A stretch of 14,512 nucleotides of DNA. Source: Planctomycetota bacterium (GTDB lineage: Bacteria; Planctomycetota; GCA-002687715; DRQF01). Below are positions 1-13,892 of this stretch, one piece after another. The notes under the pieces are model-generated. The model made no database searches. It saw nothing but the letters and a program-made list of their open reading frames with translations, and was not told where the DNA came from. The stretch spans positions 1-14,512 of the forward strand of contig JALTLO010000119.1 of the NCBI GenBank assembly GCA_027001995.1, in the 5' to 3' direction. The translations under genes were made by a program, and so were the position numbers. The stretch's first letter is position 1. Every line of letters begins with the position of its first letter.

Positions 1-835
1 ACATGTCTTCGTCGCCGTACCCTGAGGCGATCAGGGTGTCTTCGGCTTCCGCCACCAGCTTGGTCAAACGCAAAGAAACGCCCAGCTCTTTCCCTGCTTC
101 CAAGGCAATGTTCAAATCTTTCCGGTGGAGGCTCAGGCGAAATCCCAATGGATATTCGTTGTTGATCATGTTGTCCGAGCGATGATCCATGACCCAGGAG
201 GCAGCTGCACCACCGCAGATGGCTTCGACGACTTTCTTGGGATCTATGTCAGAGCGGGACGCCAAGACTAATCCTTCGGCGATGGCCCGGTAGGTTCCTG
301 CAATAGCAATCTGATTGATTGCTTTTGTGACTTGGCCTGCTCCTCGTGGGCCCACATGGGTGACGTTCTTTCCGATCACTTGAAGAATGGGCATAGCCCG
401 AGCCATGTCTTCCTTGGTTCCACCGCACATGATGGCCAGGGTTCCATGTATGGCACCTTCTGAACCCCCAGAAACTGGAGCATCCACATAGCCTACTTCT
501 TTGGCGGCGAATTGTGTCCCCAAGTCGCGGGTGACGCGGGGAGAAATACTTGAGCAGTCGATAACCAAGCTGCCGGGCTGGATGGTGTGGATGACCCCTG
601 TTTGTTCTTGGGTCAGCACATCTTGAACATCAGCCGTGTCCGACACGCAGACCAAGACCACGTCGGCTTGGGCTGCGGCTTCTGCTGGGCTCAAGGCCAC
701 AGTCGCTCCATCATTCACAAGGGCCTCTGCCTTCGTCGTGGTGCGGTTGAACACACAAACTTGATGATTTGCTTTGAGGAGATTCTGGGCCATAGGGGTA
801 CCCATGGTACCCATACCGATGACAGCGATTCGCAT
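1..835 (-). CDS. NAD(P)-dependent beta-hydroxyacid dehydrogenase (3-hydroxyisobutyrate dehydrogenase / tartronate semialdehyde reductase family), truncated at the window start
   Basis: Not in the ORF track; translated manually. ATG at 835 with AGGA upstream. Reads MRIAVIGMGTMGTPMAQNLLKANHQVCVFNRT (Rossmann GxGxMG), DCSSISP, VDAPVSGGSEGA, GAGQVTKAINQ (catalytic Lys), GFRLSLHRKDL and GYGDEDM, open to the window edge. Substrate cannot be assigned. Confidence 0.93.
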   Translation of the reverse strand, partial: MRIAVIGMGTMGTPMAQNLLKANHQVCVFNRTTTKAEALVNDGATVALSPAEAAAQADVVLVCVSDTADVQDVLTQEQTGVIHTIQPGSLVIDCSSISPRVTRDLGTQFAAKEVGYVDAPVSGGSEGAIHGTLAIMCGGTKEDMARAMPILQVIGKNVTHVGPRGAGQVTKAINQIAIAGTYRAIAEGLVLASRSDIDPKKVVEAICGGAAASWVMDHRSDNMINNEYPLGFRLSLHRKDLNIALEAGKELGVSLRLTKLVAEAEDTLIASGYGDEDM

Positions 836-1248: not shown

Positions 1249-2829
1249 ATGACCCGCAGAATGATCCAGTTGGGGCTATACCATGCCATGATCCTTGTCC
1301 TCGGCGGCAGCCTGATGGCCCAATATAACTATGGTGTCGGTCATCCCGGATCGGGAGGCCTGACGCCACGCATCTCCTGCGGCCAAGCCTGGATGGGCAA
1401 CGCCAACTTTAGCATCAAGATCGATCAGGCTATCGGTGCAGGAACTGGATACCTCCTGGTCTCGCCAACTCCTTCCAACACGACGCTGTTCGGCGGACTT
1501 CCTTTTTACGTTGACGTCAACAATCTTTTTAGCGTCTCCTATCTGAGTCTGGGCGGCACACCCGGTGTAGCAGGAGATGGTTACATTGACTTTCCGGCTC
1601 CACTTGATTCTTTTGGAGTCAATCCTTCTCTCGCAGGTGTGCCGTTCTTTTGCCAATCTTTGGTCTTCGACAGTGCTGCTGTGGGAGGTGCCGCCATGAG
1701 CCCCGGTCTCATTCTCTATTTGACCATGCCCCCGGAGGTCTTCGTTGGCAGTGCCCTAAGTGGGTCCTCAGACCCAGCCTGGCTGGTTGATCCCCAGACC
1801 GCTGCGGTCAAATCTCAGAACAATTCTGTCGGCGACAACTGTGACGGCGCTGTCTTCACTACTGACGGACTCGATCTCTACATAAATTCCTCCATAACTC
1901 CAGCTATTCGTCACGCCGACTTGTCGGTCAACCCTCCGAGTTGGTCGACTCTCATGACCTTCGCGCCAGGAACGAATTCTTACGGTCTGGCGATTGACGA
2001 GTTGAATGGAATTCTCTGGTGCGTTGCCGATCTCGGAGGGGGCTCAGGTCTTGAATTTGTTGGCATTGATGTCAACGAGAACAGCCTGAGTTATGGCATT
2101 GTTCTCTATTCTGCTCCGACGACAGCGTTGGGTGGCAGCGTTGGCATCTGGCACCTGACGTCAGACTTGAAAATTGTCGCGCCAGAAATATTCAGTGGCG
2201 ACATCGAGATCTTCGACATGGATCCCACCAGTGGGACATTCCTCCAGAACATTTCTACCATCACCCCACCGGGAGCAGCAGGTGGTCCATTTGGCGGCGG
2301 CGCGGGAGCAACTGCTGTGACAACATCCCTGGATGGAGACCAACTCATCTTCAGTCTTCAGGGTCTCAATTTTGGTCTCGCACAAATCGCCCGTTATTCC
2401 CAATCTACCGGGGCCTGGTTCGACCATGATCTTTCAGCCCCTGGGATCCAAAACATGGGGCCGTCATCTTCCCCACCGGTTATTCTGGGCTCGGCGGCCT
2501 CATGTTTGTCCAGCCCGCGATTCGGAGATTCAGATTTTTTCGTGGTTTCAGGTTTTGGGGGGAATGGTTGGGCGGCACGGATCGATTTTGATGTGCAGAA
2601 TCCTAATTTTTGGTCTGTGACCCCAGCGTCTGGGACAAGTTTGAATGCCGGGTGGTTCTGCGCTGTCAACCCAGAGGGGACCATGGTGGCCATCACAACC
2701 CTCAGCGGATCATCACCGCGCCTCAGATTCTTCGATGCCAAGACGATGTCCCACCAATTCACTGTGCCCCTGCTTGGTGGTTCTGGTTATGTCAGCGGCG
2801 CCAATCTCAAGAACCCGATTTGGCGTTGA
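1249..2829 (+). CDS. Secreted protein with an N-terminal ~135-aa beta-rich domain followed by a probable beta-propeller (YncE/lactonase-like)
   Basis: 526-aa ORF with GGAG upstream and a signal-peptide-like start (MTRRMIQLGLYHAMILVLGGSLMA-Q). Repeated blade-like motifs: GAVFTTDGLDLYI, YGLAIDELNGILW, AVTTSLDGDQLIF, CAVNPEGTMVAIT. Followed by a strong terminator. Confidence 0.85.
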   Translation: MTRRMIQLGLYHAMILVLGGSLMAQYNYGVGHPGSGGLTPRISCGQAWMGNANFSIKIDQAIGAGTGYLLVSPTPSNTTLFGGLPFYVDVNNLFSVSYLSLGGTPGVAGDGYIDFPAPLDSFGVNPSLAGVPFFCQSLVFDSAAVGGAAMSPGLILYLTMPPEVFVGSALSGSSDPAWLVDPQTAAVKSQNNSVGDNCDGAVFTTDGLDLYINSSITPAIRHADLSVNPPSWSTLMTFAPGTNSYGLAIDELNGILWCVADLGGGSGLEFVGIDVNENSLSYGIVLYSAPTTALGGSVGIWHLTSDLKIVAPEIFSGDIEIFDMDPTSGTFLQNISTITPPGAAGGPFGGGAGATAVTTSLDGDQLIFSLQGLNFGLAQIARYSQSTGAWFDHDLSAPGIQNMGPSSSPPVILGSAASCLSSPRFGDSDFFVVSGFGGNGWAARIDFDVQNPNFWSVTPASGTSLNAGWFCAVNPEGTMVAITTLSGSSPRLRFFDAKTMSHQFTVPLLGGSGYVSGANLKNPIWR

Positions 2830-2844
2830 TTTCGATTGTGTTTT

Positions 2845-2870
2845 GAACTCATCGACGCATCGGATAGTCT
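2845..2870 (+). promoter_or_regulatory. Candidate ECF-type promoter for the sigma factor gene
   Basis: GAACTC (2845-2850), 16-nt spacer, GTCT (2867-2870), resembling the sigmaE-type GAACTT-N16-GTC consensus, ~33 nt before the ECF start codon. Confidence 0.4.
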
Positions 2871-2889
2871 CCGATGCGTCGTTTTTCTT
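2853..2889 (+). terminator. Intrinsic (Rho-independent) terminator
   Basis: Perfect 12-bp stem CGACGCATCGGA / TCCGATGCGTCG, 5-nt loop, followed by TTTTTCTT, 23 nt after the stop at 2829. Confidence 0.85.
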
Positions 2890-2902
2890 CGTGAGGCTAG
2901 GC

Positions 2903-5900
2903 ATGAACATGTCCCATGACAATGTTGATCTTATTCGAGATCACGCGCGCTTTGTGCGAAACTTAGCTCGCCGACTTGTCTTTGATGAAAATGCAGCTGA
3001 CGACATTGCCCAGCAGGCTTGGCTCACCGCTCTACAATCTCCTCCGTCTGACTTTTCGCGTATTCGTTCCTGGCTTCGCACGGTCACTGGCAATCTGGCG
3101 AGGCGGCAAAGTCGCGACACAACGCGACGTGTTGCTCGGGAACAACGCGTAGCCGCGTCGGAGGGAGCTCCAGCAACAATCGACCTCGTGGCCCGTGAGT
3201 CTATTCTTGAGAAAGTAACCGAAGCGGTTTCGGAGTTACCTTCCAATCAACGGGAAGTTATTTTGCTTCGCTACTTTGAAGACCTCCCTCCTCGCAACAT
3301 CGCCAAGCGCCTGGGTGTTCCCGTGACAACGGTGCAAAGCCGCCTCCAACGGGGCTTGACTTCCATGCGCCGTATCATGGATCGCAAGTACGGCGAAAAT
3401 CGCCAGGAATGGCAGCGCTCCCTGGGGCTTCTGCTGGGTCTTTCTCTGCCCGAGCCACGACCCTGGTTATCCTTCAAGTCATTGGCATCTGTGGCGGTGA
3501 TTGTATCCAGTGTACTCCTGTGGACTTTTCTCCGTGAGGCCGGGGACTCAGACCTTGAACTTCCTGTGGCCCAAAACAGCACCGCAGGAACTCGAGTCTC
3601 CAGAACAGCTGATCAGCCTCCCATCCCCGATCCGACTTTGGTCTCCCCAGGAACCACCACCGTTTCTTTCTGGCCACGGCCCGCTCGAGAACAACGCAAT
3701 TTCAAGGGACGTGTTTCGGGTCTTCCCGAATCAGGAGGCTCAACCGTCGTGCTGCGGGCATTTTGCGGCACGGACAGCACAAGATTGGCCGTCGATCCAA
3801 AGGGTTGGTTCACTGGCAGTACCTCCAGTTGGCCGAGACGCTTGCCTGGTCTGTGGGCATCGTCGGAGGATGGCAGCATGGCCGCTATTCGAGCTCTGCT
3901 CCCGGTACAGCCGACGATTCAGCAACCTCACCCATTCACCATGGCGCTCAGACCTGCGGCTGAGATTGATATCTTCACCAGGAATCTTGCTGGGGTTAGC
4001 GAGTCGGCAGAAGTGGCCCTCTATGCCCTGGGAATCCCCATTGTCGAAATGGAGATGACCATGCGGCAGAACGTGTTTTTGGGGATACACAAGACAAACA
4101 GGGATGGCCGCCTTAGCCTCGGTGGGCTGATTCCGGGTGACTATCTTATGCTGTGCCGCAGCAAGGGAACTGGGCTTGTGGGAGAACTTTCCTTCAGCCT
4201 TGACGGGGGAGCTTCTCTTCAACGATCAGTTATTCTCACTGAGGGCAGAGTGCTGAAGGTCAATATCACGCCTGTCCGTGGTGCAAAACATAGGCTGCCT
4301 TGCCGCTTGGCTATGAGTTTCTTCGTTTCTCGGGGCATCGATAACATGGAACTCCCGTGGCCATGGAAGAACCCTATCGTTGATGTCGCCCGCCCAGGTT
4401 CTTTGACCTTGAAGGGGCTCCCTAAGAATAGGTTTCTGAAGTTGCTTGCCCATCGCTCGCCCTTTGTACCCTACGTAGCCGAGATACCGGGTGGTGCTGA
4501 GACATGGGACCTGAATCCCGGTTGGTCCATGAGCAATTTGATTCGCTTCAGCTTGAAAGGCTCTGGACCACTTCCTCCTCTCGAACTGTTGAATACGGAT
4601 TCCCTCATTGGGGTACGCGCTCTTTTATTCGATAACCAGGTGGTCCTTGAGGGGCTCCAGGATCTGGACGAAAGTCTCCTGATTCTCTCCGCCGACGGTC
4701 GCGTTGCTCGTGTTGATGCCCAGGCGATTCGAGATCGCTCTCTTTCATTCAGTGAGCAGCATTTCCTCGAAGTGAGGGTCTTGGATGAACGTGGAAAGCC
4801 ACAGCCTGGCGTCTTGTTGACGGCCACAAGCGATCAGCCCCATAAGGCTATTCGCCATGTCAGGACTGATTCTTTGGGTTGTGGGAGGCTTGGCCCCTTT
4901 GCCACGGATGAGGTTTACCTTTTTGCTGGCCGTCCTGATTCTTGGTTGATGAATCATCTCTCTCTCGGAACGGCAAAGCTCGGCGAAGAAACGAAGGTCG
5001 TCACTCTCCGCTCGCCCCGTCAAGTTGAGCTACAATTCACTATTGACGGACGTCCCGGACTGCCTGCTGACTATCGGCTTGCAGTCCGGGGAGCCTTACG
5101 TTCAGATCTCCAGACCCAGGATGATGCCGGTTTGATTCGTTTTCACGTTTGGCCGGACTCGGGGTCGAAGCGATGCACAGTAGGAGTCGTGACGAGCCAG
5201 TACGGTGCCAATCAGGTGCTGCTCGACTTGACCCAGACTGGCCTCTTGAAAGGGGAGTTGTCACTCAAGCGGCTGAGCAGCGCTGTTCTCACGGTTCAGG
5301 AACCAGATGACGGGCTCTATGAACCAGCGATTGCTCAGTGGGTACCTAAGCGAGGCATCTGGCGTCGTGTGGGGCGGGGTGGAGCACTGCGCATAGGCGA
5401 ACATCAATATCGCTGGTCCGAACTGGCCCCGGGACGTCATCGGGTTTTTGATGCCCAAAGTGGCTGCATAGGTCCTGAGTTTGTGATCGTGCCTGGTGCG
5501 AACGACAGAAGCATGACCCTCGATCTCACCGAGTGCCGCAATCTGCCAGTCATTCTTGATCTGCCAGAACAAGTGAGTCGTGAAGACCTCAAGATTGAAC
5601 TTTTGAATAGGGAAACACCTTGGAATGTCTCCTTGAAGCAGGATGACAACGGCAACTACCATTTTCGTCTTCCGGGTAGAGAGTTCTATCGTATTCGCCC
5701 TTACCATCCCCTTTGCCAACTCGACTCCGGCGCCGATTTTCTGGAGATCCCCCAAGGAGCAGGATCTGTGAAACTAAGAATGGTATTGGCTCCTATGGTT
5801 CAGGTTGCAATTGAGGACGTGCCTCCTCGGGTCTTGAAACTCAAGAAAAGTCGCCTGTTCTTGCGCAGTGTGGCTACCCCGGAAGAGACCATTAGCCTCC

Positions 5901-6304
5901 CATTGCAGATCTTCGCCGATAAGCTCGTTGCCGGGAACATTCCTGAAGAAGAACAGGATATCTGGTTAGACACGGGAGAAGGGCCGGTTGCATTTTTGGG
6001 GCGCCGTCGACTTCTTCCCGGTGAAATTTTGAAACGGCCAGTGCCCACGGAGGGCAGCACACTCAGCATCGATCCTCCTGAACATGTGCTGCCCGGGCGC
6101 AAAGTGACCCTTATCTTGCGGGCTCTTGAGGCACCCTTCCAAAAACGAATCTATAAAGTTCCGGCTGACAAGAAGGTGACGTTGGACAATCTTAGTCCGG
6201 GGCGGTTCGAGTTGAAGATCAGTCCAGCCGGGTTTCAGTTCGGCATCATAAGAACACACAAGATCTTGCTGCGGCCAGGCCAGACAACAACTGTTGTTCA
6301 GTAG
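2903..6304 (+). CDS. ECF-family sigma-70 factor fused to a transmembrane helix and a ~900-aa extension of probable carboxypeptidase-regulatory-like beta-sandwich repeats
   Basis: Likely start ATG 2903 (GAGG 6 nt upstream; ATG 2909 is an alternative), 1133 aa. Region 2: HARFVRNLARRLVFDENAADDIAQQAWLTAL and IRSWLRTVTGNLAR. Region 4: ELPSNQREVILLRYFEDLPPRNIAKRLGVPVTTVQSRLQRG. Hydrophobic segment LASVAVIVSSVLLWTFL. Repeats such as TNRDGRLSLGGLIPGDY, VRVLDERGKPQPGV..TDSLG and LDNLSPGRFEL. Confidence 0.92.
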   Translation: MNMSHDNVDLIRDHARFVRNLARRLVFDENAADDIAQQAWLTALQSPPSDFSRIRSWLRTVTGNLARRQSRDTTRRVAREQRVAASEGAPATIDLVARESILEKVTEAVSELPSNQREVILLRYFEDLPPRNIAKRLGVPVTTVQSRLQRGLTSMRRIMDRKYGENRQEWQRSLGLLLGLSLPEPRPWLSFKSLASVAVIVSSVLLWTFLREAGDSDLELPVAQNSTAGTRVSRTADQPPIPDPTLVSPGTTTVSFWPRPAREQRNFKGRVSGLPESGGSTVVLRAFCGTDSTRLAVDPKGWFTGSTSSWPRRLPGLWASSEDGSMAAIRALLPVQPTIQQPHPFTMALRPAAEIDIFTRNLAGVSESAEVALYALGIPIVEMEMTMRQNVFLGIHKTNRDGRLSLGGLIPGDYLMLCRSKGTGLVGELSFSLDGGASLQRSVILTEGRVLKVNITPVRGAKHRLPCRLAMSFFVSRGIDNMELPWPWKNPIVDVARPGSLTLKGLPKNRFLKLLAHRSPFVPYVAEIPGGAETWDLNPGWSMSNLIRFSLKGSGPLPPLELLNTDSLIGVRALLFDNQVVLEGLQDLDESLLILSADGRVARVDAQAIRDRSLSFSEQHFLEVRVLDERGKPQPGVLLTATSDQPHKAIRHVRTDSLGCGRLGPFATDEVYLFAGRPDSWLMNHLSLGTAKLGEETKVVTLRSPRQVELQFTIDGRPGLPADYRLAVRGALRSDLQTQDDAGLIRFHVWPDSGSKRCTVGVVTSQYGANQVLLDLTQTGLLKGELSLKRLSSAVLTVQEPDDGLYEPAIAQWVPKRGIWRRVGRGGALRIGEHQYRWSELAPGRHRVFDAQSGCIGPEFVIVPGANDRSMTLDLTECRNLPVILDLPEQVSREDLKIELLNRETPWNVSLKQDDNGNYHFRLPGREFYRIRPYHPLCQLDSGADFLEIPQGAGSVKLRMVLAPMVQVAIEDVPPRVLKLKKSRLFLRSVATPEETISLPLQIFADKLVAGNIPEEEQDIWLDTGEGPVAFLGRRRLLPGEILKRPVPTEGSTLSIDPPEHVLPGRKVTLILRALEAPFQKRIYKVPADKKVTLDNLSPGRFELKISPAGFQFGIIRTHKILLRPGQTTTVVQ

Positions 6305-8839: not shown

Positions 8840-11473
8840 TTAGATGCCTTCTTCGATGAGCATTTTGTCGAGGGTTTCTGTCACCTTGCCTTGTAACTCT
8901 GCAAAGAACTCGGGAGTGTTGAAGTGCTCCATTTTCATGTGCTCTTGTTTCTTTAGGGCGTCTGCTGGCATGGCGTAGTCCAAGTCCGTGAAGCCTTGTT
9001 TCTTCTCCAAACGATAGCCTCGCAAGAAGGTGCGCATGACAACGCGCTGCAATTCTTCTTCGGTTATTTTGAGGTCAGAGAGGGCACCTAAGGCCATAGT
9101 CATGTGCTCGTCGCACATGGCAGCGAACTTGCAAACGCCGATTAAGTCGTCGCGCATGATCATGGGGCCCCGCTTGGTTATCGCATCCACCCAGTAATCC
9201 ATGCCGGACTCTTTTTCGAAAACGTAGAGCAAATAAGTCTTCATGGACATATGGCCACCGGCCAAAGCCCAAGGATAGCCGGGATTGACGTGGGGCATGT
9301 AGGCTGGGAACTCCATGCCTTTGCAATGCATGGCGTAGTCAGTTTCCCCCAAGGCTTCAGACAAGCGCTTGGTCCCCTGCCCTAGAACAGGCAATTTCCC
9401 TCGCCCGATTTCTTCGATGGCCCGCTTGGTGCCTTCGAAGTTGCCGTATTCGATGTAATCAGGAAGGATCGAGGAAAGTTCAGCATCCTTGCGGCGTTTG
9501 TTGTATTCCATGGCATAGGCCAAAGTGACACCAATAGAGATGGAATCCATGCACAGGTCATCGACCAACTCCACTAATACAGCTGCTTCCCCAATGTCGT
9601 AGATGCCGATGTTCGACGAGAGCAGGTTGAGAGGTTCGTAGTCAAATTTGGCGTGGTATTTGCCTTTCTTGCCGTCTTCGTTGGTGTACATGTTCTTGTG
9701 ACAAGCGATTCCACAGGCGTAGCAGGCTTCATCTTTGATCAGATACTTGCCTTCTTTTTCGACCTCTTCCCGCCACAACTGCCGCGAGACCTCTGTGCCT
9801 GTGGGGTTGAAGTTGTATTCGGGCATGGCATTGAGAGGATCCAAGGCAATCATGTTGGCCCAAGTACCCCCGCCACCATCGCCTTTTTTCTTGTCGCGGA
9901 ACCGACGGCTACCTTCGCCCCTGGCCACCCATTGGTTCATCTCTTTAAGACCATCGACTTTTTCTTTCTTTGGGTCTTTGACATCGGCCACGATGCCCAA
10001 GAGGTTCTTTGATCCCATGACCCCGCCGATGCCCCCACGTCCACAGAAACGACTTTTCATGTCTCCGCTACGCAGTTGGTTCATGGTCGAAAGAGCAATG
10101 GCCGCATAATTCACGCTGTCGTAGTTTTCACCAGCGGGCCCGACCACGGCGAACTGACCTTCTGGGTATTTGCTGTAGAGGTGTTGGATCTTCTCGTTGG
10201 CAGGTTTGTCCTGAAGGTGTCTGCCATTTTCGAATGTGAAGGTGGGTTCTGTGGCTCCGTCTTCCAAATGAATATGTAGGTAGACCGGCATCACTGCGCG
10301 ACCTTTGAAAATGACTTCGTCGATTCCCAGGGATCGCAGCTTGGTACCGAATTTGCCGGACCCCGCTGTCCACATGGCGCTGGGTTTGTTTTCCAATGAA
10401 GATTTGAGTGGCGAATAAGCATGGAAGTAGGTGCGTAAGGCGGTCATGAATTGGCTACCGCTTAGACACCCCAAGTTCAGGACTAATGGGGCCTCCGGAG
10501 CATAAGCATCGTCAACGTCGTAGTTCTCCAAGATCTTGAAGCCCCGAGCAGCACCTCCCAAAACGTCTTCTAAATCTTCACATTGGAAGGGGATGTGTTT
10601 GACGGTATAGGTCGAAAGGTCAATCTCGTAGCGGTTGACGGTAAATTCCTTCGGCTCCTTGGTCCCGGCTTTCATGGGGGGGATTTCAGGGAGACTTGCT
10701 TTCTTCGCTTTCGGAGCTGGTTTTTCTGAGGCTTCATCGGCCTTGGGAGTTTCTGTCTTTTCCGTCGCCGGTTCGTCCGGCGCTTGGGGCTTAGGAGGGA
10801 CAACGACCTTTTGAGCCTCTGTGGGTTCTTCCGTCGCTGCTACTTTTTCTGGGGCCGATGGGATTGTCTGCTGTGCTTCCGTCGTTTTTTCTTTGACGGG
10901 TTGGGGGGCATCGCTTACCGGGGACTCTTGTGCCTCGGTGACACTTTCGTCGGGCACCTTTGGGGCCAGGGGGGCCGGTGTGACGGATTCTGGTTTCGGT
11001 TGTTGCGGTGTGACGGATTCTGGTTTGGAAAGCTGGGTTGCGTCGTCTTTGGCTTCGTCAATTGGAGTCTGCGTTTGGGCTGCAGCTTCTCCATAAGGGT
11101 GAATGGGTTGAGGTTCGGTTTTTGTGCCCCTGGGAGCAGCTGCTTTTTCCGTTTTCGCGTTCTTGGCGGAGGGCTTCATGATGACTTCAATGGCACACTT
11201 GCCAAGCATCAATTTGAGGCCATGGCCTAAGCGGTGCTGTTCTCCCTTCGAGAGGGCAGGGCCATCTTCGATACGAGTCTTGTTGGAGCTCCCCAAGTCT
11301 TGAATGGCAACGCCTTCGCCTTCGGCAACGATTTGGGCATGGCGGCCGGATGAGTTGGGATCCATGATGACAATGTCGCAACGAGGGTCGCGGCCAATTT
11401 TCATACCCACCCTAATGCGCTCTTCGCGGCTCGGTTGACCGGCTTCCGTGATCTTGAAAATGATCTCAGTCAT
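8840..11473 (-). CDS. Fusion protein: N-terminal FHA domain, Pro/Glu/Lys/Ala/Thr-rich linker, and tungsten/molybdopterin aldehyde:ferredoxin oxidoreductase (AOR family)
   Basis: 877 aa with AAGGAG 5 nt upstream. FHA aa 1-99: IGRDPRCDIVI..SSGRHAQI..QDLGSSNKT. AOR from about aa 277: GPAGEN, GRGGIGGVMGSKNL, CYACGIAC (CxxCxxxC), DYEP, DDLCMDSIS, MHCKGMEFPAY, DLIGVCKF (fourth cluster Cys). Confidence 0.93.
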   Translation of the reverse strand: MTEIIFKITEAGQPSREERIRVGMKIGRDPRCDIVIMDPNSSGRHAQIVAEGEGVAIQDLGSSNKTRIEDGPALSKGEQHRLGHGLKLMLGKCAIEVIMKPSAKNAKTEKAAAPRGTKTEPQPIHPYGEAAAQTQTPIDEAKDDATQLSKPESVTPQQPKPESVTPAPLAPKVPDESVTEAQESPVSDAPQPVKEKTTEAQQTIPSAPEKVAATEEPTEAQKVVVPPKPQAPDEPATEKTETPKADEASEKPAPKAKKASLPEIPPMKAGTKEPKEFTVNRYEIDLSTYTVKHIPFQCEDLEDVLGGAARGFKILENYDVDDAYAPEAPLVLNLGCLSGSQFMTALRTYFHAYSPLKSSLENKPSAMWTAGSGKFGTKLRSLGIDEVIFKGRAVMPVYLHIHLEDGATEPTFTFENGRHLQDKPANEKIQHLYSKYPEGQFAVVGPAGENYDSVNYAAIALSTMNQLRSGDMKSRFCGRGGIGGVMGSKNLLGIVADVKDPKKEKVDGLKEMNQWVARGEGSRRFRDKKKGDGGGGTWANMIALDPLNAMPEYNFNPTGTEVSRQLWREEVEKEGKYLIKDEACYACGIACHKNMYTNEDGKKGKYHAKFDYEPLNLLSSNIGIYDIGEAAVLVELVDDLCMDSISIGVTLAYAMEYNKRRKDAELSSILPDYIEYGNFEGTKRAIEEIGRGKLPVLGQGTKRLSEALGETDYAMHCKGMEFPAYMPHVNPGYPWALAGGHMSMKTYLLYVFEKESGMDYWVDAITKRGPMIMRDDLIGVCKFAAMCDEHMTMALGALSDLKITEEELQRVVMRTFLRGYRLEKKQGFTDLDYAMPADALKKQEHMKMEHFNTPEFFAELQGKVTETLDKMLIEEGI
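10976..11026. repeat. 21-bp perfect direct repeat with 30-bp period in the FHA-AOR linker (KPESVTP x2)
   Basis: CGGTGTGACGGATTCTGGTTT at 10976-10996 and 11006-11026. Confidence 0.92.
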
Positions 11474-11494
11474 GAGAACTCCTTAAATGGAAAG

Positions 11495-11520
11495 ATCGAC
11501 GCCGCGTTTGCGACGTCGAT
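11495..11520 (-). terminator. Intergenic hairpin between the ThDP enzyme gene and the FHA-AOR gene (terminator, attenuator or stability element)
   Basis: Minus strand ATCGACGTCGC-AAAC-GCGGCGTCGAT: 11-bp stem with one G-U, followed by CTTTCCATTT and then the AAGGAG RBS. Confidence 0.55.
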
Positions 11521-11610: not shown

Positions 11611-13254
11611 TCAGAGCTTGCAGGTGATCGAACCCAGTTTCTCCGTCAGTTTGCTGTTTTCGCTGTAGTCGACAGGCATCACAATAACCGCCGGACCGTC
11701 TTTCGTGAATGCCTCTTCTAAAGTCGATTTGAGGTCGCGAGAATTCTCGACCCGAGCCCCCCAGCAGCCGAAGGATTCTGCCAGCTTCACCCAATCTGGG
11801 TTGGTGAAATTGAGCTCAGAATGGCGGCCAAAGGTGTTTTCTTGCTTCCACTTGATGAGCCCATAGTGGTGATCTTCCCACACCATGACCACGATGTTCA
11901 GTTTACGTCTGGCGGCAGTTTCCAAGTCTTGGATGTTCATCAGGACCCCAGCGTCGCCGTTAATGCAGAGGACTTTGCGGTCTGGGAAGACGGTCTTGGC
12001 GGCCATAGCCCCAGGAAGAGCGAATCCCATGGTGCAGAATCCGTTGGAGATAAGGCAGGTATTGGGCTCGTCGCATTGATAATAGCGTCCGATCCACATT
12101 TTGTGAGCACCCACATCCGAAAGCAGGATATCGTCCGGGCCCATGACTTCGCGGACGTCGTAGAGTGCCTTTTGGGGTTTGATGACACCTTCTGTGTTGT
12201 CATTGGCGAACTCATTGAGGTCTTTGAGCATCGCCTCCCGCAAAGGTGCCATCTTGCTGATGTCAAAGAGGGGCTCCGAGGGGAGAATGTCATTCAAGTT
12301 CCACAAGGAATCGGCGATGTCCGCGACGATTTCGACATCCACATTGTAGGCTGCTTCCACTTCTGCTGATTCGAAGTCGATATGGATGATTTTCTTGTCC
12401 CGGCCGCTATTCCAAAATTGAGGATGGTATTCCACCAGATCGTAGCCCACAGCCATGATAAGGTCGGCTTTCTCCATTTCACAGCTAATGTGGTCTCTGG
12501 ACTGTAACCCCATGGTGAATAGGCAGTGAGGATCGTCCCGGGGGATCACACCTTTTCCCATGAAGGTGCTGACGACGCCAATGCCGCTTTTCTTAGCGAA
12601 TTCTCGAAGTTGGGCCACTGCTCGTTTCCTCAGAGAACCGTTTCCTGCCAAGACAATGGGGTGTTTGGCGGCTTTCAGCAATTCCATGGCCTGGGCCACG
12701 GCTTTGTGGTCTGCCCCTGGACGACGGACTTTTCTGGGAATCATGGGCTCCATGTCGAGCTCAAGCTTGGCGATGTCTTCGGGGAGCTCGATGTGGCAGG
12801 CACCGGGCTTTTCTGCTTGGGACACCTTAAACGCCTTGCGGACGACTTCAGGGATGTTGGTCCGGTGGACGATGCTGAAGTTCCATTTCGTCACGGGCTT
12901 GAACATGGCAACCACGTCCATGTTTTGGTGGGATTCTTTATGTAGGCGTTTGGTGTCTGCCTGCCCGGTGAGGACGACCATGGGGGCACGGTCCATGTTA
13001 CCGTCAGCAACTCCTGTGATGAGGTTGGTTGCACCTGGGCCCAAGGTGCCCAGGCAAACCCCGGCACGTCCAGTGAGCCGCCCATAGACGTCGGCCATAA
13101 AGGCCGCAGCTTGCTCATGGCGACAAAGAACGAAATCAATATTCGATTCTTCAAGGGAAATCATGATGTCTGCGTTTTCTTCCCCGGGCAGACCAAAGAT
13201 GTACTCGACACCTTCCGCTTCCAAGCACTTGACGAATAGATCTGATGCCTTCAT
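11611..13254 (-). CDS. ThDP-dependent acetolactate synthase large-subunit-like protein, resembling the clade of cyanobacterial 2-oxoglutarate decarboxylase
   Basis: 547 aa with AGGAG RBS. GVEYIFGLPGEEN, RHEQAAAFMADVYGRLTG (catalytic Glu), TLGPGATN, HKESHQ, SDVGAHKMW, CLISNGF, GDAGVLMN..WEDHHYGLIKWKQ (ThDP motif variant), PVDYSEN. No small regulatory subunit or ilvC nearby. Confidence 0.93.
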   Translation of the reverse strand: MKASDLFVKCLEAEGVEYIFGLPGEENADIMISLEESNIDFVLCRHEQAAAFMADVYGRLTGRAGVCLGTLGPGATNLITGVADGNMDRAPMVVLTGQADTKRLHKESHQNMDVVAMFKPVTKWNFSIVHRTNIPEVVRKAFKVSQAEKPGACHIELPEDIAKLELDMEPMIPRKVRRPGADHKAVAQAMELLKAAKHPIVLAGNGSLRKRAVAQLREFAKKSGIGVVSTFMGKGVIPRDDPHCLFTMGLQSRDHISCEMEKADLIMAVGYDLVEYHPQFWNSGRDKKIIHIDFESAEVEAAYNVDVEIVADIADSLWNLNDILPSEPLFDISKMAPLREAMLKDLNEFANDNTEGVIKPQKALYDVREVMGPDDILLSDVGAHKMWIGRYYQCDEPNTCLISNGFCTMGFALPGAMAAKTVFPDRKVLCINGDAGVLMNIQDLETAARRKLNIVVMVWEDHHYGLIKWKQENTFGRHSELNFTNPDWVKLAESFGCWGARVENSRDLKSTLEEAFTKDGPAVIVMPVDYSENSKLTEKLGSITCKL

Positions 13255-13421: not shown

Positions 13422-13892
13422 ATGGAGATGCTCAAGACGCTCTTTCTTCCTAAGCAACTGAACCAGGACTTGCTGTCTATGAGTCAGCTTCACGCCCCCC
13501 AAGAGGCCTGTGGATTGCTCCTTGGCAAGCGGAACAGCGCTGATGCCGCGGTGGATCAATTCATACCACTTTCCAATGAGGCATCTGAAGTCGACCGATT
13601 TCGCATTGACCCCAGGGATTACCGAGAAATAGAGCGGCGAGCCTTGGTTTGTCAAAAGGAAATCTTGGGCGTGTTTCATTCTCATCCTCAGGGGCGTTCT
13701 GCCCCTTCCACCACGGATTTGCGCCATGCCCGGGACTCTTGGGGTGCGGGATGTAGCTGGGTCTATGTGATTTGTGGCTTAGAAGAACGGGACGGCGAAG
13801 AAATCCGTAGCTGGCAACTGAGAAAAGGAGTGTTTACGCCAGTTTTAACGGGGATTTCCGGTGTAAGTGGTGAATTTTTGCATGGGTATTAA
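13422..13892 (+). CDS. JAMM/MPN+ (Mov34, M67 family) zinc metallopeptidase
   Basis: 156 aa with GGAGG upstream. PQEACGLLLG (catalytic Glu), FRIDP, and the complete JAMM motif GVFHSHPQGRSAPSTTD. Confidence 0.92.
   Translation: MEMLKTLFLPKQLNQDLLSMSQLHAPQEACGLLLGKRNSADAAVDQFIPLSNEASEVDRFRIDPRDYREIERRALVCQKEILGVFHSHPQGRSAPSTTDLRHARDSWGAGCSWVYVICGLEERDGEEIRSWQLRKGVFTPVLTGISGVSGEFLHGY

Follow-up and report, generated by a model that had tools for sequence, protein, structure and literature searches.

An FHA domain fused to a tungsten-type oxidoreductase in one family of uncultured planctomycetes, and its possible place in a 2-oxoglutarate bypass

Why would an aldehyde-oxidizing metalloenzyme carry a domain that typically binds phosphothreonine (pThr)? 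The question is raised by a gene at 8840..11473 on the minus strand of the window, by which we mean the whole 14,512-nt stretch analyzed here (contig JALTLO010000119.1 of the Planctomycetota assembly GCA_027001995.1). The gene encodes an FHA domain, a disordered linker, and the large subunit of an enzyme of the tungsten-containing oxidoreductase (WOR) family, which includes the aldehyde:ferredoxin oxidoreductases (AOR). A first-pass annotation had reported an uninterrupted 877-aa open reading frame (ORF) with a strong ribosome-binding site, and both points were borne out: the ORF is free of internal stops, and a Shine-Dalgarno AAGGAG (11479..11484, minus strand) lies 5 nt before the ATG. The three-part build with a low-complexity linker of about 175 aa was also confirmed. 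Pfam matches above cut-off were obtained for FHA (residues 25-91, E 4e-13), AFOR_N (283-497, E 7e-35), and AFOR_C (535-845, E 2e-40), and the two enzyme domains scored 121 bits (PF02730) and 139.5 bits (PF01314). On the minus strand the FHA core (PF00498, with a folded unit of about residues 2-101) occupies 11201..11401, AFOR_N 9983..10627, and the AFOR_C domains 8939..9871. Residues 100-275 (176 aa) consist chiefly of P, A, K, E, and T, with Thr at 10% compared with 4.7% in the enzyme part. AlphaFold, run on an 11-sequence alignment, gave pLDDT of 85-92 for residues 1-100, below 50 for the disordered residues 104-258 (10700..11164, minus strand, containing a 30-nt tandem repeat near 10976-11035), and moderate values with a mean of 59 for the enzyme. 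Foldseek ranked WOR structures first and pThr-binding FHAs next. Within codons 96-300 the only in-frame ATG, GTG, or TTG codons are M99, V173, and M267. An internal start at Met267 (10675) was rejected, as it has no AAGGAG-type site, in agreement with the first-pass reading, and Met is found there in just 6 of 11 relatives.

The fusion was conserved in related genomes. In the homologue listing (the best 120 of 560 found among 7997 scored), PF00498 was detected in 9 of 120 proteins, all within the best 11, and in none of the remaining 109; those that are named are from Planctomycetota. When the nine genomes of the family were checked for separate FHA and AOR genes, seven showed both parts as one ORF, and in an eighth (G008) the contig end cuts the gene after the FHA. 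A FastTree phylogeny of 85 rows (60 of 121 proteins and 25 loci) placed the fused WORs in one clade with support 99, nested among FHA-less planctomycete WORs. P0008, also in this clade, has its called start within the last FHA strands. The FHA is kept over five genera, with 44-69% identity to that of the window protein. This WOR was found in 19 of 301 sampled genomes of the phylum, and no FHA (window query) was found within 1.5 kb of 14 non-family WOR loci, two of them with short upstream flanks. A profile search among 50%-identity representatives gave no pairing of FHA and WOR in 16 Pfam-scanned proteins (13 from that search, of 150 listed, and 3 from the homologue listing). We also searched for forms of 1062-3030 aa and found none, which is weak evidence. 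At the read level, contigs of four DNA sequencing runs were compared with the window and none covers the whole stretch; no RNA run was listed as containing it. Contigs of the probable source run end at the 30-nt linker repeat, and no single piece spans the gene; a contig from a second study covers 10610-11079 and differs only by the in-frame loss of 30 nt. By these results the fusion is real almost beyond question. On the tree, the FHA was gained once, in the ancestor of the family, and the fusion is confined to this one family of uncultured planctomycete genomes.

The FHA domain has kept its binding pocket. The residues named by the first-pass annotation (G27-R28, S42-x-x-H45, and N64) are present, and R28, S42, H45, and N64 do not vary among the 11 aligned fused proteins, whose FHA part has 18 invariant columns of 100. 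Its predicted fold is that of an FHA and it carries the G-R, S-x-x-H, and N motifs, so that by sequence and model the domain is a candidate pThr-binding FHA. The usual FHA motif is N-G-T, and N-K-T stands in its place here. The linker contains K-T108-E and K-T119-E-P-Q-P-I-H-P-Y (11093..11155, minus strand) as candidate phosphosites. [KR]TE occurs 16 times in seven of nine WOR linkers compared with 1.7 expected from shuffles, and TE(P/A)QPIHPY is present in 6 of 11 aligned proteins. For motifs with Ile, Leu, or Val at pT+3, the linkers showed no enrichment (5 compared with 8.6 expected). In relatives the linker ranges from 56 to 342 aa and varies widely in length and sequence. Pkinase matches number 49 and FHA matches 29 in the window genome; among 17 other FHA proteins scanned (five partly), the extra domains were cyclases, sigma-54 activators, kinases, and one phosphatase. 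The first-pass proposal of recruitment or regulation through Ser/Thr signaling thus gains from the conserved fusion, the invariant pocket, the non-random Thr motifs, and the abundant kinases. Its narrower idea that the FHA binds its own linker is now one of three options, the others being the upstream decarboxylase and a membrane redox cluster, and these are not separable. We consider pThr-dependent use of the FHA somewhat more likely than not.

The FHA tree (59 domains, 98 columns) grouped the WOR FHA with the first FHA of two double-FHA membrane proteins (support 98/96), and long paralogues of G003 and G007 fell inside the WOR-FHA group with weaker support (90/85). In these double-FHA paralogues an FHA is followed by a long linker with Thr motifs, as in the WOR fusion. 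Because of this grouping and the matching FHA-linker anatomy, a double-FHA membrane protein is the probable source of the extension. In G004 (81% complete), the search turned up no close FHA paralogue. The conserved double-FHA cluster to which these membrane proteins belong was located at G000 C94:1-5351 and C182:630-12574 (L140, L139) and also at L164-L168. It contains a long double-FHA membrane protein, HbpS-like, LVIVD-repeat, and short double-FHA proteins, two multiheme cytochromes (one FHA-fused), and a cyclic-nucleotide-binding (cNMP)-2x[4Fe-4S] protein. A description of such a cluster was not found in the literature searched.

The enzyme part appeared intact. All four [4Fe-4S] cysteines claimed at first pass are present (C584, C587, C591, C781), and each is kept in 121 of 121 homologues, as are R347, R475, E613, D638, D643, Y725, H741, and D776. 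The cysteines were mapped to PfAOR by alignment. C787 was tried as the fourth cluster ligand and rejected, since it is not conserved across the 121 aligned homologues. R347 and R475 align to PfAOR R76 and R182, and E613 and Y725 to Glu313 and Tyr427. The second-shell residues of AOR are given as Thr243, Glu313, Tyr427, and His448 in the accessible part of PMC12096430. T537 and H741 probably correspond to Thr243 and His448: they match in the WOR83 alignment, lie 2-3 residues off in the PfAOR alignment, and are identical in all 11 aligned fused proteins. No WorS/N/ABC or small Fe-S subunit gene flanks the WOR in the window. With both WorL domains, the four cysteines, and no subunit genes, the enzyme fits a Class I WOR. 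Tungsten is the likely metal because tupABC-like and moeA genes accompany the WOR in relatives. The tupABC-like genes directly follow it in G004 and G006 (TupA 182 bits, below the 400 cut-off), and moaD-moeA or moeA lies near it in G001, G002, G003, and G007. The window genome has a tupABC-like set and a moaD-moeA/moeA set on other contigs. The enzyme is very probably catalytically active.

The strongest functional clue is the gene directly upstream, which the first-pass annotation overlooked. It encodes a thiamine diphosphate (ThDP) enzyme of the PRK08322 family, 2-oxoglutarate-decarboxylase-like (11611..13254, minus strand; NF006187 771 bits, cut-off 509); the model it passed carries the name 'acetolactate synthase'. 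All nine family genomes have this gene immediately before the FHA, with a gap of 13-22 nt in four. Two further loci (L061, L062) have the ThDP gene and an FHA-less WOR in the same order, about 110 nt apart; because both genes occur there without the FHA, the pair is older than the fusion. The ThDP protein keeps 15 of 17 active-site residues of MaKGD, the 2-oxoglutarate decarboxylase (KGD) of Microcystis, with matching spacing (A408 is replaced by C and G436 by A). Gln254, Lys386, and Lys471 of MaKGD were docked to 2-oxoglutarate on a model, according to the accessible text of PMC10418658, and their equivalents are among the residues kept. The two lysines correspond to Lys385 and Lys470 of the ThDP protein, and every full-length homologue checked retains them; at the three positions, catabolic acetolactate synthases carry F, Y, and Q. 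No KGD was among the 25 PDB matches of the ThDP protein at E 1e-60.

Neighbors of the ThDP gene outside the family pointed in the same direction. The survey covered 24 non-family loci, from 42 non-family genomes with a match. A gene of the aldehyde dehydrogenase (ALDH) type adjoins the ThDP gene in 12 of the 24, and the full-length ones examined were ALDHs in 8 of 8 cases. This WOR was found in 0 of 12 ALDH-neighbor genomes compared with 8 of the 12 others, so that one aldehyde-oxidizing enzyme appears to be exchanged for the other. Plasmid ThDP homologues lie beside succinate-semialdehyde dehydrogenase (SSADH) in 3 of 40 listed rows, and elsewhere beside an ALDH or gdhA. It is therefore probable, as judged from gene order and this exchange, that the WOR acts on the aldehyde released by its ThDP neighbor. 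That this aldehyde is succinic semialdehyde is slightly favored.

The metabolic content of the window genome (92% complete) was also considered. The ThDP protein is its sole TPP_enzyme_N match. Neither ilvC nor ilvD nor acetolactate decarboxylase was detected in it (ilvC occurs in one of nine family genomes; ilvD and acetolactate decarboxylase in one of five), which makes an acetolactate-synthase role for the ThDP gene unlikely. SucA (TIGR00239) was not found and is present in two of nine family genomes. SSADH was likewise not found in the window genome; its three ALDHs passed other models above cut-off, those of piperideine-6-carboxylate, glutamate-semialdehyde, and dehydroadipyl-CoA-semialdehyde dehydrogenases. 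As a separate observation, korA-korB is followed directly by a Ser/Thr kinase-TPR gene at G000 C43:44569-50936 (L141).

These results suggest the following scheme. The ThDP decarboxylase would convert 2-oxoglutarate to succinic semialdehyde and CO2, and the Class I-type WOR would oxidize the semialdehyde to succinate; the electrons would leave by way of the [4Fe-4S] cluster, and a ferredoxin-type carrier, not NAD(P), would accept them. In the ancestor of the family, a double-FHA membrane protein would have supplied the WOR with the first of its two FHAs and the Thr-motif linker. The FHA, its pThr pocket retained, would act on its long tether as a docking arm switched by kinases, binding pThr on a partner or, like DgcB, on its own linker, and so would make the bypass conditional on Ser/Thr signaling. 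The KorAB/succinyl-CoA synthetase route yields ATP, and the decarboxylase bypass skips that step; as the bypass would duplicate this route without ATP, there is a reason to gate it. We hold the scheme as a whole, from neighbor's aldehyde to signaling, only tentatively, at somewhat below an even chance.

Several results weigh against it. Closure of the cycle does not depend on the bypass, as all nine family genomes have KorA and the five examined for succinyl-CoA synthetase all have it. The eight WOR-bearing genomes of the neighbor survey belong to four families, five genomes coming from one, and are not independent. For the ALDHs that adjoin the ThDP gene, the best match is lactaldehyde dehydrogenase, below cut-off, and not SSADH. 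Five of 19 WOR genomes have no ThDP gene at E 1e-120, and several carry the WOR and the ThDP gene on separate contigs. Many of the 15 residues shared with MaKGD are generic ThDP contacts, the MaKGD roles come from model docking, and 9 of the 24 non-family loci, among them the majority of those in WOR-bearing genomes, encode Gly at the Gln254 position. In the enzyme part, one alignment puts H741 two residues away from PfAOR His448. A basic residue after the FHA Ser is common, although not universal; the window FHA has Gly there, and all 11 aligned proteins have G, A, or S. DgcB R76 and OdhI R87 are examples of such an Arg (PMC6733907 and PMC10415282, accessible parts). The [KR]TE pattern was picked after viewing the alignment, and its sequences are related. 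No kinase gene is present in the window. Finally, G004 has both parts of the fusion with a frameshift in a GC-rich Pro-Ala linker repeat, and P0010, which lies in the fused clade, has a called sequence without FHA.

A more specific version of the scheme is speculative. Here the FHA arm would dock to the decarboxylase, for transfer of succinic semialdehyde, or to a membrane multiheme complex, for delivery of electrons, and be released once Thr of its own linker is phosphorylated, giving a kinase-switched tungsten/ferredoxin bypass.

Alternatively, the FHA could be an address label: copied from a double-FHA membrane protein of the multiheme-cytochrome cluster, it would bind the phosphoprotein which that protein recognizes and bring the WOR to the membrane redox complex as electron outlet. 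The grouping of the WOR FHA with the first FHA of the cluster's proteins is in line with this, as are the G003 and G007 paralogues, the multiheme cytochromes and cNMP-2x[4Fe-4S] protein of the cluster, and the absence of a small Fe-S subunit gene beside the WOR. The cNMP-ferredoxin gene was found in 13 of 19 WOR genomes compared with 14 of 282 others, but this co-occurrence tracks a few families and is confounded by kinship. Moreover, the double-FHA cluster is not next to the WOR at any locus examined, G004 offers no close paralogue, the FHA tree has few columns (98) for its 59 rows, and common ancestry does not show a common ligand. We regard this explanation as unlikely.

An amino-acid catabolic role is also not likely. 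The ThDP enzyme would then be a broader 2-oxoacid decarboxylase and the WOR an FHA-regulated general aldehyde oxidizer or detoxifier, as PfAOR is. Characterized Class I WORs are mostly broad aldehyde oxidizers (PMC13328260, accessible part), the genome's own ALDHs point to lysine, proline, and aromatic catabolism, ilvC and ilvD were not found, and the ALDHs neighboring the ThDP gene are not clear SSADHs. Against this stand the conserved Lys385 and Lys470, and the cyanobacterial KGDs are reported to be strict for 2-oxoglutarate (PMC10418658, same part as above).

Less probable still is that the FHA-linker is a passenger, captured once in an FHA-rich lineage and tolerated on a disordered tether without a regulatory role. 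The 29 FHA matches of the genome, the highly variable linker, the possible loss or split in P0010 and G004, and a WOR subclade with an unrelated N-terminal extension would suit it. However, the FHA has been kept over five genera with its phosphate-binding residues invariant, and the break in G004 lies in a GC-rich repeat, its closest relative P0012 being intact. An assembly artefact joining two genes, for which the contig breaks at the linker repeat might be taken, is refuted because independent genomes (six others of the family, besides further database proteins) carry the same one-ORF fusion, and the second-study contig crosses the linker in frame; it has next to no probability.

Other features near the gene were recorded. 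The WOR subclade just mentioned (P0032, P0054, P0063, P0073, P0084; support 100) has an N-terminal extension of 165-189 aa plus linker; that of P0054 showed no Pfam domain, and an Atlas search of its residues 1-135 gave no usable match. Six FHA-less WOR orthologues, mostly from one family (L064, L119, L120, L122, L123, L130), adjoin a shared ORF, whose L120 copy is the tRNA sulfurtransferase ThiI. An 11-bp hairpin (11495..11520, minus strand) lies between the decarboxylase-like gene and the FHA-WOR, just before its ribosome site, and may be terminator-like or stabilizing; a similar one is present in G002, and it is absent in relatives with the 13-22 nt gap. A promoter and terminator scan gave counts no better than chance. 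The FHA-WOR gene is flanked in the window by the ThDP gene and a DNA-alkylation-repair-like gene. A Prok-JAB protein (13422-13892, plus strand) is divergent from the ThDP gene, lies near it in G002, G004, G005, G006, and G008, and may recycle a MoaD-type sulfur carrier. A beta-hydroxyacid dehydrogenase (2-835, minus strand), near in six of eight relatives within the fetched region, could reduce the same semialdehyde; the best match of its G002 copy is tartronate semialdehyde reductase, below cut-off. Farther away, 2645-6304 (plus strand) encodes an extracytoplasmic function (ECF) sigma factor with a long carboxypeptidase-regulatory-like extension fused to it (listed at 1219 aa, with the true start probably later), and 1249-2829 (plus strand) encodes a protein of 526 aa that begins like a signal peptide and matches no Pfam model.

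The fusion is probably undescribed. No description of FHA joined to WOR or AOR, and no paper linking a tungsten enzyme or AOR with succinic semialdehyde or an oxoglutarate decarboxylase, was found in the literature searched, which excludes most subscription journals. In the 2026 WOR classification (PMC13328260), FHA, forkhead, and Planctomyc occur 0 times in the main text, and FHA and Planctomyc 0 times in three supplements, the main dataset Table_1 being outside the search. Both domains are well known; what is new is the N-terminal FHA signaling module on a WOR. The first-pass view that AORs normally stand alone holds for the WOR clade studied here but not generally, since P0169 is a Fe-ADH-WOR fusion (1092 aa) and P0185 a WOR-OMPdecase/HUMPS-family fusion (992 aa); therefore WOR fusion as such is not rare. 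A defined physiological role is given for only five of 92 WOR clades in the accessible part of PMC13328260. The operon and the ALDH/WOR exchange point to a specific substrate, open to testing, for a planctomycete WOR clade that is so far unstudied, and the fusion puts a signaling module on a tungstoenzyme. If the more specific version of the scheme is true, this would be a tungstoenzyme under kinase control and a new physiological substrate for the WOR family.

Compared with known Class I WORs (PfAOR 1AOR, BmWOR, HvWOR83 9Q1T, CsWOR87), the window enzyme shares both WorL domains, the four cluster cysteines, the Glu313/Tyr427 equivalents, the lack of a small subunit gene, and, in relatives, tup and moeA genes nearby. 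It is distant from them, as from all WORs of solved structure (phmmer E 1e-32; 23% identity by Foldseek), has Val in place of the PfAOR Fe-bridge Glu332, and differs in its N-terminal FHA and linker and in its pairing with a decarboxylase. The closest metabolic parallel is the cyanobacterial bypass of MaKGD or ScKGD with SSADH (PMC10418658, in part), whose decarboxylase has a length similar to that of the upstream ThDP enzyme (547 compared with 550 aa). The likeness is in the named active-site residues. The second step there is carried out by an NAD(P) dehydrogenase, whereas a pterin/ferredoxin enzyme is proposed here, in a genome that also has KorA.

For the FHA, Bdellovibrio DgcB (FHA-GGDEF) is a precedent for the self-binding model, because its FHA binds Thr in its own disordered segment; it is a signaling enzyme whose Thr tail precedes the FHA and whose FHA Ser is followed by Arg (PMC6733907, in part). 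The window fusion is, unlike DgcB, a metabolic metalloenzyme with its Thr motifs after the FHA. Actinobacterial GarA and OdhI place an FHA of the same fold at the 2-oxoglutarate node of a kinase-using cell (PMC10415282, in part). They are small free proteins of about 140-160 aa that bind E1o-type 2-oxoglutarate dehydrogenase, of which the window genome yielded no SucA, whereas here the FHA is fused. The window FHA scored 22.4 bits on the OdhI model, compared with 200, and the FHA tree points to a separate origin, so that any likeness would be convergent. By sequence the FHA-WOR is not a GarA or OdhI, but by analogy it may work like one. If the FHA does gate a 2-oxoglutarate bypass, kinase control of this node would have arisen twice, on unrelated enzymes.

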